UHGV virus genome: UHGV-0136520
Source of the DNA: a virus
Length of the DNA: 28,383 nucleotides
Strand: one strand, 5' to 3'
Both the position numbers and the translations under genes were made by a program. Below are positions 7,766 to 12,180 of the stretch, piece by piece (position 1 is the first letter of the stretch; each line of letters begins with the position of its first letter). The notes under the pieces were generated by a model. That model did not search any database and was not told where the DNA came from. It worked only from the letters and a program-made list of their open reading frames with translations.

Positions 7766-7945
7766 GTGCGCGAACTTAACCGAAGGTTCAAAGACCACCG
7801 CGGAGTGCAAGTCCGTGTTATCCGCTGGGAGCCAGAAACACAGCGCGTTATCTATCTGCGTGATGGCTACCCACACGAATGCTTCAGCCCACTTGAGCAT
7901 TTCAGGCAAAAGTTCAGGGAGATAACGGACGATCATGAGCACTAA
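7766..7945 (+). CDS. Small hypothetical protein, 59 aa, absent from ORF track
   Basis: GTG start 7766 preceded by GGAGGG. Product MRELNRRFKDHRGVQVRVIRWEPETQRVIYLRDGYPHECFSPLEHFRQKFREITDDHEH. Its stop overlaps the start of the replication gene by 11 nt. Preferred over the low-complexity 127-aa track ORF 7542-7925 in another frame, but both are uncertain. Confidence 0.25.
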   Translation: MRELNRRFKDHRGVQVRVIRWEPETQRVIYLRDGYPHECFSPLEHFRQKFREITDDHEH

Positions 7946-8792
7946 ATTAACCGGCTACGTATGGGATGGTTGCGCGGCGTCGGGCATGAAGTTGTCTAGT
8001 GTCGCGATCATGGCTCGCCTCGCTGATTTCAGCAGCGATGAGGGAGTGTGCTGGCCGTCCATTGAAACTATTGCTCGCCAGCTTGGCGCAGGGCCTAGCA
8101 CGATCAGAACGGCAATCGCAAAGCTTGAAAAAGATGGCTGGCTCACGCGTACACAGCGCCGTAATGGTAACCGTAATGCGTCGAACGTGTACCGCCTGAA
8201 TGTGGCGAAACTTCAGGCTGCCGCATTTTCTCAACTGTCAGATTCTGACACGTCAAAATCTGACGCATCAAAATTTGACGCCTCAAAAACTGACCCGTCG
8301 AAATCCGTCAAAAACGGCGGTTTTGACCCGTCAGAATCTGGCGGGGATCCGTCAGTAAAATCAAAACAAGATCCACAAGTAACTTCAAAACCCTCTTGTC
8401 CGGTTGCGGCGCAACCAGACCCTGAAGTCGTGATTACTGATCAGGCAATTTTGGTTCTGACCCATTTGAACCAGATCAGCGGATCCCGGTATCAGAAATC
8501 CAAAACATCCCTAGAGAACATCCGTGCCCGACTGCGTGAGGGATACAGCGTTGCAGACCTGCAACTGGTTATCGACCTGAAGCATGAGCACTGGCACGAG
8601 AACGACGAGCAGTACCAGTACATGCGCCCGGAAACGCTGTTCGGCCCGAAGAAATTCGAGAGCTATCTGCAAAGCGCTACCCGCTGGGAGCAGAAGGGAC
8701 GGCCTAAACGCGCTGACTGGGGTGCGAAAAAGCGCGATGTGATGGCTTTTGGTCCGGTTGATACAACGATTCCAGAGGGGTTCAGAGGATGA
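7935..8792 (+). CDS. Replication initiator protein (O-like; N-terminal HTH, conserved phage C-terminal domain), 285 aa
   Basis: N-terminal winged-HTH-like region. Central region carries DNA iterons. C-terminal region resembles the conserved C-terminus of phage replication proteins. Position matches lambda O. Confidence 0.6.
   Translation: MSTKLTGYVWDGCAASGMKLSSVAIMARLADFSSDEGVCWPSIETIARQLGAGPSTIRTAIAKLEKDGWLTRTQRRNGNRNASNVYRLNVAKLQAAAFSQLSDSDTSKSDASKFDASKTDPSKSVKNGGFDPSESGGDPSVKSKQDPQVTSKPSCPVAAQPDPEVVITDQAILVLTHLNQISGSRYQKSKTSLENIRARLREGYSVADLQLVIDLKHEHWHENDEQYQYMRPETLFGPKKFESYLQSATRWEQKGRPKRADWGAKKRDVMAFGPVDTTIPEGFRG
8246..8362. repeat. Origin-like iteron array inside the replication initiator gene
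   Basis: Tandem 15-bp direct repeats TGACACGTCAAAATC, TGACGCATCAAAATT, TGACGCCTCAAAAAC, TGACCCGTCGAAATC (8246-8305), then degenerate copies (CGTCAAAAAC, TGACCCGTCAGAATC, CGTCAGTAAAATC) and an A-rich stretch. Mirrors ori-lambda lying within O. Confidence 0.55.
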
Positions 8793-10108
8793 CGTTAAAC
8801 AAATATTGCCAGGCGTTGGCGGCACTACGCAGCCAACCAGCCCACGAATTGAGAGAAGTTGGCGATCAGTGGCGGACACCGGATCTGCTTTTCTGGGGTA
8901 TTAACGCGCTATTTGGGCCATTAGTTCTGGACTTGTTTGCTGACGACGACAACGCGAAGTGCCCGGCATGGTACACCGCCGAAGATAATGCGCTGACGCA
9001 GGACTGGTCTGAACGTCTTACAGAACTGGGTGGCGCCGGTTATGGCAACCCACCGTATAGCCGTTCGCAGTATCACGAGAAACAGGCGATCACCGGCATG
9101 ACGCACATCATGAACTACGCAGCAGCCCAGCGCGAGAAGGGCGGTCGCTATGTATTCCTGATAAAAGCCGCGCCGAGTGAAAAGTGGTGGCCCGAAGATG
9201 CCGATCACATTGTATTCATTCGCGGGCGCATTGGGTTCGATCTGCCTGTGTGGTTTGTACCTGCTGACGAAAAACAGAAGCCCACCAGCGCGTTTTTTGC
9301 CGGTGCTATAGCTGTATTCGATAAGTCATGGCGTGGTGAGCGGTTCAGCTATATCAACCGTACAGAACTGGAGGCAAAAGGGCGGGCGTTTATGACTTTG
9401 GCGCAATTTGCTGCCAGCAAGTCTCAACCTGCAACTGCCACACCATCTGTAGCTGACAAGCCAGAAGCAGAGTTGCCACTTACCCAGAAAGATATTTTTG
9501 ATATCAGCGGTGTCGAGGCGTGGGCATGCGTTAGAGCTGCGTTCGGCGATAAAGAAGAATACACATTCAGTGAATCGAAGTTTGGGCATACCTGGGCGGC
9601 GGATTCTGTCGAAGCACCGGAATTCACTCAGGTATCACCATTAACGATCGACAAAGCGAAGCTGCTTATTCGTGAGAGTATTTTGTTCGGTGTGGATGAG
9701 TGGCTGTTGTCGATTGAATTCGATGACGCTGCTGCGCGCCTGGATATGTCGGAACGTATTCGGACTGTTGCCCTTGAAGCATCTGGTGAATATGGCATGA
9801 ACAGTACTGATTTCATTGCAGCTATGGGAAGCCTGGATGTTTCCAGTTGGTCCAATATTCGCCAGATCCGCATGCACATCCGTGAGAAAGCTAAACCAGT
9901 ATCGGATCCGCTTCCCGAGTCCCGTATCTGGCCGCTGGAGGTTGGAATTGTATTCGACCAGGTAGACGGCGCTGACATGCTGGATGAATCACAGCAGAAC
10001 AAGCTGAAAGCCAACATCAATCAACTCTGGCTGGAGCGGACTGCCACCAGCGAAATCATTACTGCTGCTTCTGAACTTGTTCGCAATATGCGGGGAGAGG
10101 CTGCGTGA
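8789..10108 (+). CDS. Phage DNA N6-adenine methyltransferase (Dam-type, NPPY motif) with an uncharacterised C-terminal extension of about 240 aa, 439 aa total
   Basis: N-terminal WRTPDLLF and catalytic GNPPYS motifs are typical of the phage Dam family. The C-terminal half has no motif I recognise. ATG overlaps the upstream stop (ATGA). Confidence 0.7.
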   Translation: MTLNKYCQALAALRSQPAHELREVGDQWRTPDLLFWGINALFGPLVLDLFADDDNAKCPAWYTAEDNALTQDWSERLTELGGAGYGNPPYSRSQYHEKQAITGMTHIMNYAAAQREKGGRYVFLIKAAPSEKWWPEDADHIVFIRGRIGFDLPVWFVPADEKQKPTSAFFAGAIAVFDKSWRGERFSYINRTELEAKGRAFMTLAQFAASKSQPATATPSVADKPEAELPLTQKDIFDISGVEAWACVRAAFGDKEEYTFSESKFGHTWAADSVEAPEFTQVSPLTIDKAKLLIRESILFGVDEWLLSIEFDDAAARLDMSERIRTVALEASGEYGMNSTDFIAAMGSLDVSSWSNIRQIRMHIREKAKPVSDPLPESRIWPLEVGIVFDQVDGADMLDESQQNKLKANINQLWLERTATSEIITAASELVRNMRGEAA

Positions 10109-10491
10109 AACTGGTCCTGCCTTTTCCTCCGAGCGTGAATACTTACTGGCGCGCCCCTAACAAGGGGCCGCTGGCCGGTCGTCACCTCATTAGCGCTGAT
10201 GGCCGTAAATACCAAAGCGCTGCCTGCGTGGCGATCATTGAGCAATTACGACGTCTCCCGAAGCCATCGACTGAACTGGCAGCGGTAGAAATCACTCTGT
10301 ACCCGCCGGATGCGCGCCGCCGGGATATCGATAATTACAACAAAGCCCTGTTTGACGCGCTGACGCATGCGGGTGTCTGGGAAGACGACAGCCAGATTAA
10401 GCGCATGCTGGTGGAATGGGGACCCGTTGTGCCGAAAGGTCGGGTAGAGATAACGATCAGCAGATATGAACCGGCGGGTGCAGCCGCCTGA
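10105..10491 (+). CDS. rusA: RusA-family Holliday junction resolvase, 128 aa
   Basis: Matches the RusA pattern (PPSVNTYWR ... RRRDIDNYNKALFDALTHAGVWEDDSQI) with catalytic Asp residues. GTG start overlaps the methyltransferase stop. Confidence 0.8.
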   Translation: MKLVLPFPPSVNTYWRAPNKGPLAGRHLISADGRKYQSAACVAIIEQLRRLPKPSTELAAVEITLYPPDARRRDIDNYNKALFDALTHAGVWEDDSQIKRMLVEWGPVVPKGRVEITISRYEPAGAAA

Positions 10492-10504
10492 TATGGAGAA
10501 AAGT

Positions 10505-11188
10505 ATGAGCCAGTTAGCAACAACAGCATTAACCATGTCCAGCAGCGATATTGCTGAGCTGGTGGAATCACGACATGACCATGTTAAACGGTCCATTGAA
10601 CGCCTGGCAGAGCGCGGTGTTATTGAACTCCCCCCAATGGGGGAAGTTAAAAATCACCTCAATCAGTCGGTATCGGTTTATCTGATAGGGAAGCGGGACA
10701 GTTATATCGTTGTCGCGCAGCTGTCGCCGGAGTTTACCGCACGTCTGGTTGATCGCTGGCAGGAGCTTGAGCAGGCACAGCAGCAGACGATTCCTCAATC
10801 ATTCTCTGAAGCCCTACGTCTTGCAGCTGACCTTGCAGAACAAAAACAGCAGTTGACTAACGAACTGGCTGCCGCGGCGCCGAAGGTAGCGTTTGTTGAT
10901 CGGTACTGTACAGCCAGTGGGTCAATGTCATTCCGTCAGGTGGCAAAACTGCTTAAGGCCAAAGAGCCAGATCTGCGGTTATTCCTCCTTGAGAACGACA
11001 TCATGTATCGCCTTGGCGGAACGATGACCCCACGGCATCAGCATATTGATGCGGGCCGTTTTGAAGTGAAAACCGGTACATCCGTAACCTCAAATCATGC
11101 ATTCAGCCAGGCACGATTCACGGCGAAAGGCGTGCGCTGGATTGGTGGACTGTGGGCAGAACACATTGCCAGGGGGCAGGTCGCGTGA
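10505..11188 (+). CDS. Phage antirepressor-like protein (Rha-type N-terminus, KilA-C-type C-terminus), 227 aa
   Basis: N-terminal LTMSSSDIAELVESRHDHVKRSIERL resembles the Rha regulatory domain. C-terminal AFVDRYCTASGSMSFRQVAKLL...LGGTMTPRHQHIDAGRFEVKTG resembles the KilA-C antirepressor domain. ATG 10505 with GGAG upstream. Confidence 0.55.
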   Translation: MSQLATTALTMSSSDIAELVESRHDHVKRSIERLAERGVIELPPMGEVKNHLNQSVSVYLIGKRDSYIVVAQLSPEFTARLVDRWQELEQAQQQTIPQSFSEALRLAADLAEQKQQLTNELAAAAPKVAFVDRYCTASGSMSFRQVAKLLKAKEPDLRLFLLENDIMYRLGGTMTPRHQHIDAGRFEVKTGTSVTSNHAFSQARFTAKGVRWIGGLWAEHIARGQVA

Positions 11189-12180
11189 GAGCTCTGCTTA
11201 CCCCCGAGATCGCCCATCGTATGGGGATTGTGCTGTTCCGTCCCGGTGCGGAACTGATGCACCTCTTCATGCGTGGTCGCGTTCTGCTCGAGCCTGAACC
11301 AGAAGAAATGGCGTCATTCAGTACCGGGGCTGTTCCGGCAGCCATTCAGCCGCTGGCTGATGATCCGGTAATGCGTCAGGTCTTCGAGAATGAGAGGGTT
11401 ATTCAGCGTGCCGGTGGGCTTCCTTCCCTTGAGCAATGGTTGAGTAATCGGTTTGAATGCCAGTGGCCACATTCAACGTGGCACGACAAGAACTTCACAA
11501 CAATGCGGCACCCACCAGGAAGCATTCGCCTGTGCTGGCATTGCGATCACACTTTGTCGGGGCAGCATACCGAACAGCTTGCAGGTATAGCGGCCGGAAA
11601 CCTGGTATCCTGGATTCTGGAAGTCATTCGGCGTGATTCTGGTTTTCCCGAGTCTCATATCCTGACGCTTCCGGAACTGTGCTGGTGGATGGTCAGAAAC
11701 GACCTGGCTGATGTTATTCCGGAAAGCGTTGCGCACAAAGGGCTGCGCCTTCCGGATGAGAAGATCCGTTCTGTCATGAGGGAAAGCGACATAGTGCCTT
11801 CCTCGTCAGCAACCAGACTCGTGCAGGAGAAGGCGAAGAAGATCCTCACGCTCTCTGTTGATCCGGAGTCGCCAGAGTCTTTTATGCTCAGGCCAAAACG
11901 TCGCCGCTGGATAAATGAGACGTACACCCGCTGGGTTAAAACACAGCCCTGTGAGTGTTGCCGACGGCCAGCAGATGATCCGCACCATATCGTAGGGCAC
12001 GGTATGGGGGGGACAGCAACAAAAGCCCATGATCTCTTCGTGATCCCTCTGTGCAGAGAGTGCCACGATGAGTTACACGCCGATGTACTGGCATTCGAGC
12101 AGAAGCATGGTACGCAGCTTGAGCTGCTACTGCGTTTTATGGATCGGGCGCTGGCGATCGGCGTAATTGCGAAAGCTTAA
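11185..12180 (+). CDS. Cys/His-rich putative HNH-like nuclease-fold protein (DUF968-like), 331 aa
   Basis: C-terminal cluster PCECCRRP...HHIVGHGMGG...CRECHDELH suggests a zinc-binding HNH-like module. GTG start overlaps the antirepressor stop (GTGA). Family assignment is tentative. Confidence 0.45.
   Translation: MRALLTPEIAHRMGIVLFRPGAELMHLFMRGRVLLEPEPEEMASFSTGAVPAAIQPLADDPVMRQVFENERVIQRAGGLPSLEQWLSNRFECQWPHSTWHDKNFTTMRHPPGSIRLCWHCDHTLSGQHTEQLAGIAAGNLVSWILEVIRRDSGFPESHILTLPELCWWMVRNDLADVIPESVAHKGLRLPDEKIRSVMRESDIVPSSSATRLVQEKAKKILTLSVDPESPESFMLRPKRRRWINETYTRWVKTQPCECCRRPADDPHHIVGHGMGGTATKAHDLFVIPLCRECHDELHADVLAFEQKHGTQLELLLRFMDRALAIGVIAKA

Follow-up and report, generated by a model that had tools for sequence, protein, structure and literature searches.

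Gene 8789..10108 of the virus genome UHGV-0136520, represented here by a stretch of 28,383 nucleotides (nt) that is referred to below as the window, encodes a 439-aa protein in which a DNA adenine methyltransferase of the phage Dam family is followed by a variable linker and two small, separable modules, here named M and T. DNA-modifying proteins of at least five classes carry or accompany T, and those of two classes M; the two modules are under purifying selection and adopt compact helical folds devoid of catalytic signatures; for these reasons the protein is interpreted, with moderate confidence, as a Dam-family enzyme that carries M and T as non-catalytic adaptor or regulatory modules of a phage DNA-modification island.

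A Dam-family domain followed by a linker and two modules

The amino-terminal part of the protein matches both profiles of the phage Dam family far above their curated cutoffs: Pfam PF05869 (Dam) aligns with residues 20-199 (E 1.1e-42, 146 bits vs a cutoff of 28.1), and the NCBIfam equivalog model TIGR01712 (phage_N6A_met) with residues 16-197 (E 5e-60, 201.7 bits vs a cutoff of 97.05). PADLOC MTase_II models PDLC03263/03332 match the same domain, and the family's W-R-T-P (residues 28-31) and catalytic motif IV, N-P-P-Y (residues 87-90), are both present, bearing out the initial annotation, which had recognised a Dam-type enzyme by the strings WRTPDLLF and GNPPYS. Judged by its sequence, this part can be assigned with high confidence to the orphan phage Dam-family N6-methyladenine (m6A) methyltransferases, and is predicted to be expressed with the replication genes and to have m6A methyltransferase activity on DNA. 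A search of PDB sequences returned no relative of solved structure for the whole 439-aa protein. The non-specific methylases Hia5/Hin1523 proved to be relatives of EcoDam and not members of this family.

Dam-only relatives of 175-217 aa exist, and one of them, M.EcoVT2Dam (VT2-Sakai orf32, an extension-free family member of 175 aa with a PF05869 E value of 6e-65), is reported to target GATC (PMC6602927), which argues that catalysis does not depend on M or T; residues 1 to ~215 probably constitute a catalytic unit that is complete by itself. The window protein is, as the initial annotation had remarked, long for its family, the PF05869 model having 169 positions, orf32 175 aa and the Dam protein of phage SfV 217 aa. 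The gene is real and no artefact. Its ATG start codon lies 3 nt downstream of a GAGG, and it is translationally coupled to both neighbours, as also proposed at the outset, by an ATGA overlap with the upstream replication-initiator gene and a GTGA overlap in which its TGA shares nucleotides with the GTG of rusA (GGGGAGAGG precedes the rusA start). The protein is already in the databases, and RefSeq bacterial genomes annotate it correctly.

The carboxy-terminal half, first described as a single domain of ~240 aa, resolves instead into a linker and two separable modules when relatives are aligned and the protein is modelled with AlphaFold2 (AF2; Table 1). M comprises two sub-parts, M1 (~236-280, with the pattern WAC..AAFGDK..YTFSESKF.HTWAADS) and M2 (~284-367, with ..W.NIR.IR..IRE). 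T forms three helices in the AF2 model (383-391, 400-415 and 420-435) and is matched by PHROG 16025 over residues 379-434 (E 9e-12); all seven invariant columns of T (W, P, E, L, I, N and A), including the W-P-x-E and I-N signatures, are present in the window sequence. Predicted local distance difference test (pLDDT) values are 79-93 over M and T in the full model and average 85 in a model of the C-terminal half, the underlying alignments being shallow and narrow. A disordered segment (371-377) separates the modules, and the low predicted template modelling (pTM) score of 0.46 fits M and T as two independent units. Both are acidic in this protein, with net charges of -9 for M and -6 for T, the latter having an isoelectric point (pI) of 4.31. 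In the same full-length model (m8ac34c08332c), the alignment that gave high confidence for M and T gave low confidence for the Rossmann-type Dam domain, whose columns may be dominated by near-identical sequences.

Relatives occur in four forms: Dam only (SfV and Stx phages), Dam+T (292-308 aa; ST64B Sb44, Citrobacter and Salmonella), Dam+M (397-408 aa; Atlantibacter) and Dam+M+T (439-445 aa). A T-profile search yielded 80 IMG/VR loci with 45 Dam+M+T, 33 Dam+T and three M+T open reading frames (ORFs). Across 41 distinct Dam+M+T genes, the ratio of nonsynonymous to synonymous substitution rates (dN/dS) is 0.09 for Dam, 0.14 for M, 0.20 for T and 0.30 for the linker. The SfV gene orf42, which follows the short Dam gene of that phage and was considered as a split-off C-terminal half, is unrelated. 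A 405-aa metagenomic protein, P0011, carries Dam and M in one reading frame with a C5 methyltransferase fragment of ~90 C-terminal residues, recognisable by motifs around QGFPDGYVI ... GNAVPPP; this looks like the product of a deletion that took the end of M, the whole of T and most of the methylase, a structure that would fit an ancestral order Dam-M-T-C5.

That the C-terminal half is uncharacterised, as initially suspected, is supported by searching it alone: its 225 aa have no match in Pfam, NCBIfam, PDB or BFVD, M has none in Pfam, PHROG or PDB, and neither the M and T profiles nor the whole protein reach E 0.1 against PDB sequences. Foldseek comparisons of the full and C-terminal AF2 models with PDB and BFVD retrieved only generic helical bundles (best E 0.36-1.1, template-modelling score ~0.2), so that, as far as the predicted models go, M and T are without any known fold. 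The last ~65 aa are nevertheless already part of family profiles, which qualifies this novelty: T is equivalent to PHROG 16025 (85 positions, with the label 'DNA methyltransferase' given by association only), to the tail of PHROG 111 and to the tail of PADLOC PDLC03332, all of them functionally uncharacterised for this segment. T is thus a recurrent, catalogued tail in one Dam subfamily (ST64B Sb44 and other proteins of 292 aa), and only M is really rare. An exhaustive HMMER scan of 1.84 billion cluster representatives gave only 42 matches for M+T, implying that the modules have a narrow range, in essence that of Enterobacterales prophages; the distribution of M is a lower bound, because an M-profile search of a 5.8-billion-protein set returned 27 short proteins and missed known Dam+M proteins. 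No description of M or T was found in the literature outside subscription journals.

Table 1. Position of the gene, its parts and its two neighbours in the window
Feature	Position	Strand	Basis
Complete coding sequence, 439 aa: Dam-family methyltransferase, linker, module M, module T	8789..10108 (stop included)	+	ORF list, sequence
Dam catalytic domain, residues 20-199; structural unit with C-terminal helix to ~residue 215 (nt 9433)	8846..9385	+	PF05869, TIGR01712, PADLOC
WRTPDLLF, residues 28-35, with the family's conserved N-terminal W-x-T-P	8870..8893	+	aligns with CWQTPLWLF of VT2-Sakai orf32
GNPPYS, residues 86-91, with catalytic motif IV NPPY	9044..9061	+	aligns with NNPPYS of VT2-Sakai orf32
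Low-complexity linker, residues 216-231, variable in length and sequence	9434..9481	+	alignment; pLDDT <50 at residues 208-227; dN/dS 0.30
Module M, residues ~232-372: all-alpha, ~9 helices, pI 4.65	9482..9904	+	AF2 pLDDT 79-93; dN/dS 0.14
Module T, residues 373-439: short disordered lead-in and three-helix bundle	9905..10105	+	PHROG 16025, PHROG 111; AF2 pLDDT 83-91; core dN/dS 0.09
ATGA start/stop overlap with the replication-initiator gene	8789..8792	+	sequence
GTGA stop/start overlap with rusA	10105..10108	+	sequence
Phage replication initiator (HTH_36 + Phg_2220_C)	7935..8792	+	Pfam
rusA, Holliday-junction resolvase	10105..10491	+	PF05866

Distribution of T and M among DNA-modifying proteins

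As a stand-alone protein, T constitutes a large family of 85-112 aa 'hypothetical proteins' (975 clusters at 90% identity) that in every context inspected lie directly 5' of a large PF00145 C5 cytosine methyltransferase. This methylase is the next gene in 80/80 IMG/VR loci found with the stand-alone T profile, and a 4-nt overlap joins the two at 75 of the 76 junctions that could be measured. The genes 5' of T in these loci fall into 25 unrelated clusters and the methylases into one, and in 22 cases T is the tail of yet another type of methyltransferase, the third (PHROG 954, with a DPPH motif).

To avoid circularity, a reverse test started from the C5 methylase in a collection with one genome per species: a T-bearing ORF, called by a simple rule as in the other locus surveys, ends within ~17 nt of the methylase start in 77/80 loci from ~30 genera of Enterobacterales, and the three exceptions are the only matches outside that order. 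The methylases, 620-712 aa long beside T, are 48-78% identical across the loci. T is carried as a stand-alone protein in 32 of the 77 loci and as Dam+T in 30, followed by PHROG-954 methyltransferase+T (seven), Dam+M+T, MT-A70+T and PAPS_reductase+Dam+T (two each), and ParB-HTH+T and DpdA-like+Dam+T (one each), all these being counts of phylogenetically related loci rather than of independent events. Such a range of carriers marks T as a signature module that closes whichever gene precedes this C5 methyltransferase, and its near-obligate position there, new evidence on the regulatory or anti-restriction role first suggested for the C-terminal half, suggests that its function concerns DNA modification generally, rather than Dam in particular. 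The stretch between the replication genes and rusA forms a combinatorial 'DNA-modification island'.

Two arrangements within this region merit mention in their own right. One is a conserved two-gene cassette of an 85-aa T (PHROG 16025) and a 620-712 aa C5 methylase with a very large variable insert, overlapping by 4 nt (loci L093-L172 and L179-L257, e.g. L093 3998-6234); in the literature outside subscription journals, neither the specificity of the methylase nor the small T protein appears to have been characterised. The other consists of triple fusions followed by a C5 methyltransferase, either a DpdA-like transglycosylase or a PAPS-reductase-like (phosphoadenosine phosphosulfate reductase-like) protein joined to Dam and T (L237 793-2511, from Erwinia rhapontici; L208 714-2501; L229 765-2501), which implies that in some phages a single locus supplies three different DNA modifications.

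M, in turn, is found at the C-terminus of ParB-HTH (helix-turn-helix, HTH) proteins of 349-446 aa. In Pantoea phage AH07 and two metagenomic prophages, the ParB-M gene occupies the same slot as the Dam-M-T gene of the window, after the HTH_36/Phg_2220_C initiator and before rusA/DUF968/Q, and in two of these three loci the gene directly next to it encodes a 251-aa, DpdA-like member of PHROG 887, labelled 'queuine tRNA-ribosyltransferase' (E ~1e-97). These tandem arrangements (L012 2610-4684, that is gp48-gp49 of AH07, and L175 4001-6275) possibly represent a DpdB/DpdA-like pair for 7-deazaguanine DNA modification in lambdoid phages. Dam+M also occurs in another type of prophage, near an integrase, which argues that the link between Dam and M is more than positional.

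Proposed role of M and T and competing explanations

The Dam-M-T protein would be a delayed-early product of a lambdoid prophage, made from the same pR-type operon as the replication initiator and RusA. It would most likely methylate replicating phage DNA, and host DNA incidentally, letting the progeny escape restriction; this role in modifying replicating phage DNA is suggested by analogy with characterised family members. M and T, which would contribute neither to catalysis nor to sequence recognition, may be non-catalytic all-helical modules from a pool of parts that recombine in the DNA-modification island of Enterobacterales lambdoid prophages, T ending the gene directly 5' of the C5 methyltransferase, as an 85-aa protein or a fusion, and M being common to Dam and to the ParB-like proteins that accompany DpdA-like transglycosylases. 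We infer that they act as protein-protein adaptor or regulatory modules, connecting DNA-modifying enzymes of several kinds with one shared partner or control, for which replicating phage DNA or the replisome, a host factor, or a partner enzyme are candidates.

Several points weigh against this interpretation. First, a tblastn search finds no C5 methylase in the 28-kb window, so that the partnership between T and that enzyme cannot operate here: the T-bearing ORF ends at rusA and not at the start of a C5 methyltransferase, which is the commoner arrangement among the 80 loci of the Dam-fused T subfamily, where rusA comes next in 62 and the C5 methylase in 14 (in related loci, L006 and L037-L061, a C5 methyltransferase cassette lies between T and rusA). 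Second, the last ~15 residues of T vary according to which gene comes next, ending in ...AASELVRNMRGEAA before rusA, as in the window, and in ...IARGLVGSMQGVTHA before the methylase; a mosaic recombination joint therefore lies inside helix 3, and part of the distribution of T reflects its use as a module boundary. More generally, adjacency and fusion in a mosaic phage region can reflect shared position rather than shared function, and the relatedness of the sampled loci limits what their counts can say. Third, neither Foldseek (best E 0.36-0.78 against PDB and BFVD) nor PDB profile searches reveal sequence or fold similarity to a characterised adaptor, and the AF2 model, in which the Dam part is poorly resolved (pLDDT 30-55), says nothing about how the modules might dock onto Dam.

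Much of the same evidence could be read differently if T, and perhaps M, were an autonomous counter-defence factor or antidote against type IV restriction (McrBC, McrA, Mrr-like) or against other toxicity that a newly expressed methyltransferase would cause in the cell that makes it, translated just before or within the methyltransferase so that protection precedes methylation. In E. coli, McrBC and Mrr act against foreign methylases that produce 5-methylcytosine (m5C) or m6A, and small acidic inhibitors, such as T4 Arn, are known. An antidote is an attractive reading in that it would explain why T is always translated directly before the C5 methylase, with overlaps of 4 to 8 nt, why it accompanies five or more unrelated DNA-modifying enzymes, why it is kept under selection without the C5 methylase yet still with Dam, and why both modules are acidic in the window protein (pI 4.3-4.65). 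However, comparison by Foldseek and hidden Markov models (HMMs) detects no resemblance in sequence or fold to Ocr, ArdA, ArdB/KlcA or Arn; the stand-alone form of T has a pI of 6.0, close to neutral, and its helix 2 is basic, so that DNA mimicry is not a property of the whole family; and the PADLOC search returned methyltransferase models only, in which T is already included, and no defence or anti-defence family otherwise. With a case that is circumstantial throughout, this explanation is doubtful. A more specific version, which we consider rather unlikely, casts T as a 'methylation-licensing' module that disarms McrBC, McrA, Mrr-like nucleases or another sensor of aberrant methylation, with M as a second such module; if true, it would let an induced prophage hypermodify its DNA without killing its own infection, M serving both the Dam and the ParB/DpdA branches.

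Nucleic-acid binding is a further function that a C-terminal extension could provide, T and/or M being in that case non-specific binding domains that raise the affinity or processivity on DNA of the methyltransferase to which they are fused or with which they are co-translated. T is a three-helix bundle whose helix 2 is strongly basic in the stand-alone form (HHQRRLKHHINR), M2 closes with a conserved N-I-R-x-x-R-x-x-I-R helix, and CcrM offers a precedent for a methyltransferase with a C-terminal DNA-binding domain (PMC6787082). The parallel with CcrM-type enzymes is an analogy of layout only, a catalytic domain with a non-catalytic C-terminal extension: no similarity in sequence or fold is detected, and M and T of the window protein are both net acidic. 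Moreover, none of the invariant T residues (W, P, E, L, I, N, A) is basic, and no HTH family of Pfam or NCBIfam, such as a controller protein would show, no other DNA-binding Pfam family and no DNA-binding fold above noise was found on M or T, making this explanation improbable.

A very improbable explanation is that module shuffling left M and T behind without a function, as former separate genes read through after deletions and tolerated since. Decayed variants do exist, among them P0011, P0007 (the first 44 aa of Dam joined to M2+T), ORFs with M+T only and split genes, and both the mosaic joint inside T and the missing C5 partner in the window would suit such a history. Against this, in genes that are followed by rusA only, the T core has a dN/dS of 0.09, equal to the value of the Dam domain, and Dam+T genes give the same result; this argues against T being a relic in the window, and purifying selection on M (0.14) is likewise comparable to that on Dam. 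In addition, the folds of both modules are confidently predicted, and their key residues are invariant across subfamilies only 35-45% identical.

Hardly credible, finally, is the option raised in the initial annotation that the C-terminal half is a target-recognition domain setting the specificity of Dam, for although it is fused to a catalytic domain of a family (PF05869) whose minimal enzymes have no obvious separate domain of this kind, M and T are neither always present nor co-varying with the catalytic domain: Dam domains that are 73-92% identical may carry neither module, one of them or both, M is common to ParB-like proteins and T to MT-A70, PHROG-954 and stand-alone proteins, the modules are acidic, and a 175-aa member is reported to recognise GATC without them (PMC6602927).

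Prophage setting, comparison with known systems and significance

By the genes that surround it, the Dam-M-T gene lies in the early-right operon of a lambdoid prophage, in the order CI, Cro-like, CII-like, DUF4222, Rep, Dam-M-T, RusA, Ant, DUF968, Q and lysozyme, with an S24 repressor on the minus strand of the window and Rha/Ant antirepressor and DUF968/HNH genes downstream of RusA. The same type of initiator is found upstream in 67 of 78 Dam+T and Dam+M+T loci. The nearest public DNA belongs to E. coli chromosomes, those of strain 1943 (97.3% identity) and Nissle 1917 (95.7%); megablast against a phage collection gave no near-identical sequenced phage.

The replication module (window 7935-10491) seems to rely on a single initiator (HTH_36 + Phg_2220_C, with a weak DnaD_N match), and no gene for a lambda-P, DnaC or DnaB-type loader lies between initiator and methyltransferase in the window; in some relatives (ST64B Sb43, L259) a PerC-like or YfdN-like gene of 140-175 aa occupies that place. 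Inside the initiator gene, a 15-bp unit (TCTGACGCGTCAAAA) is repeated 4.1 times (window 8244-8305) and encodes a SKSDASKFDASKTDPSKS stretch; these repeats look like iterons, which would put the phage origin inside the initiator gene, where lambda O also has it. Downstream, the Rha/Ant ORF (10466..11188) begins 26 nt inside the 3' end of rusA (window 10466-10491), and DUF968 (11152..12180), counted from the first start codon as Ant is, likewise begins before Ant ends. The early-right operon is very tightly packed.

Among the closest known systems is the phage Dam family itself (PF05869/TIGR01712; M.EcoVT2Dam, SfV Dam), with which the N-terminal 215 aa share W-x-T-P, NPPY, a position in the lambdoid early-right operon and the status of an orphan enzyme without a restriction partner; unlike those members, the window protein is about twice as long, carries M and T, and is only 40% identical to VT2 orf32 over 77 aa. 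ST64B Sb44 and the 292-aa Citrobacter and Salmonella proteins (PDLC03332, PHROG 111), themselves uncharacterised, have Dam and T followed by rusA and are 76-92% identical in the shared parts, and differ by the absence of the 141-aa M module. The full Dam+M+T architecture, with the same neighbours, recurs in the Nissle 1917 prophage, where the gene order is also the same and whose protein WP_001704140.1 is annotated 'phage N-6-adenine-methyltransferase', and, at 73% amino-acid identity, in phages Eeyore, Flotzy and Phi06_2987, whose records wrongly call it 'phosphoadenosine phosphosulfate reductase'.

Stand-alone T (PHROG 16025) is a homologous three-helix module with the same invariant residues W-P-x-E and I-N; it differs in being a separate gene with an extra N-terminal amphipathic helix, a near-neutral charge and a basic helix 2, and in always preceding a C5 methylase, which the window lacks. 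The relation to DpdA/DpdB-type 7-deazaguanine pairs runs only through shared accessory modules, that is, through M fused to ParB-like proteins directly before PHROG 887 genes and through the DpdA-like-Dam-T fusion, the window having neither a ParB-like nor a DpdA-like gene.

The reductase label is also attached to plain Dam-family genes of NC_004313 (ST64B), NC_003444 (SfV dam), NC_021857, NC_019716, PP925821 and PP925827. It likely stems from PHROG 33262 (495 positions), a profile apparently built from PAPS-reductase+Dam fusions, whose name was passed on to Dam-only genes, and the comparison brings to light that these genes are widely mis-annotated as 'PAPS reductase'.

Prophages of Enterobacterales, among them one of the probiotic E. 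coli Nissle 1917, commonly encode orphan methyltransferases, and the control and targeting of these enzymes are poorly understood. What the analysis adds is the definition of two mobile accessory modules and of the near-obligate pairing of T with a C5 methyltransferase, whose start it marks in ~30 genera. Between them, these small conserved modules accompany at least six kinds of DNA-modifying protein (Dam, MT-A70, PHROG-954 methyltransferase, the large C5 methyltransferase, ParB-like and DpdA-like), and so define an accessory component of phage DNA modification that is concrete and can be tested. Should T or M tether these enzymes to replicating DNA, regulate them or counter modification-dependent restriction, this would account for the use of several modifications at the same time by temperate phages, and would help to predict the host range of phages and to engineer both phages and probiotic strains.

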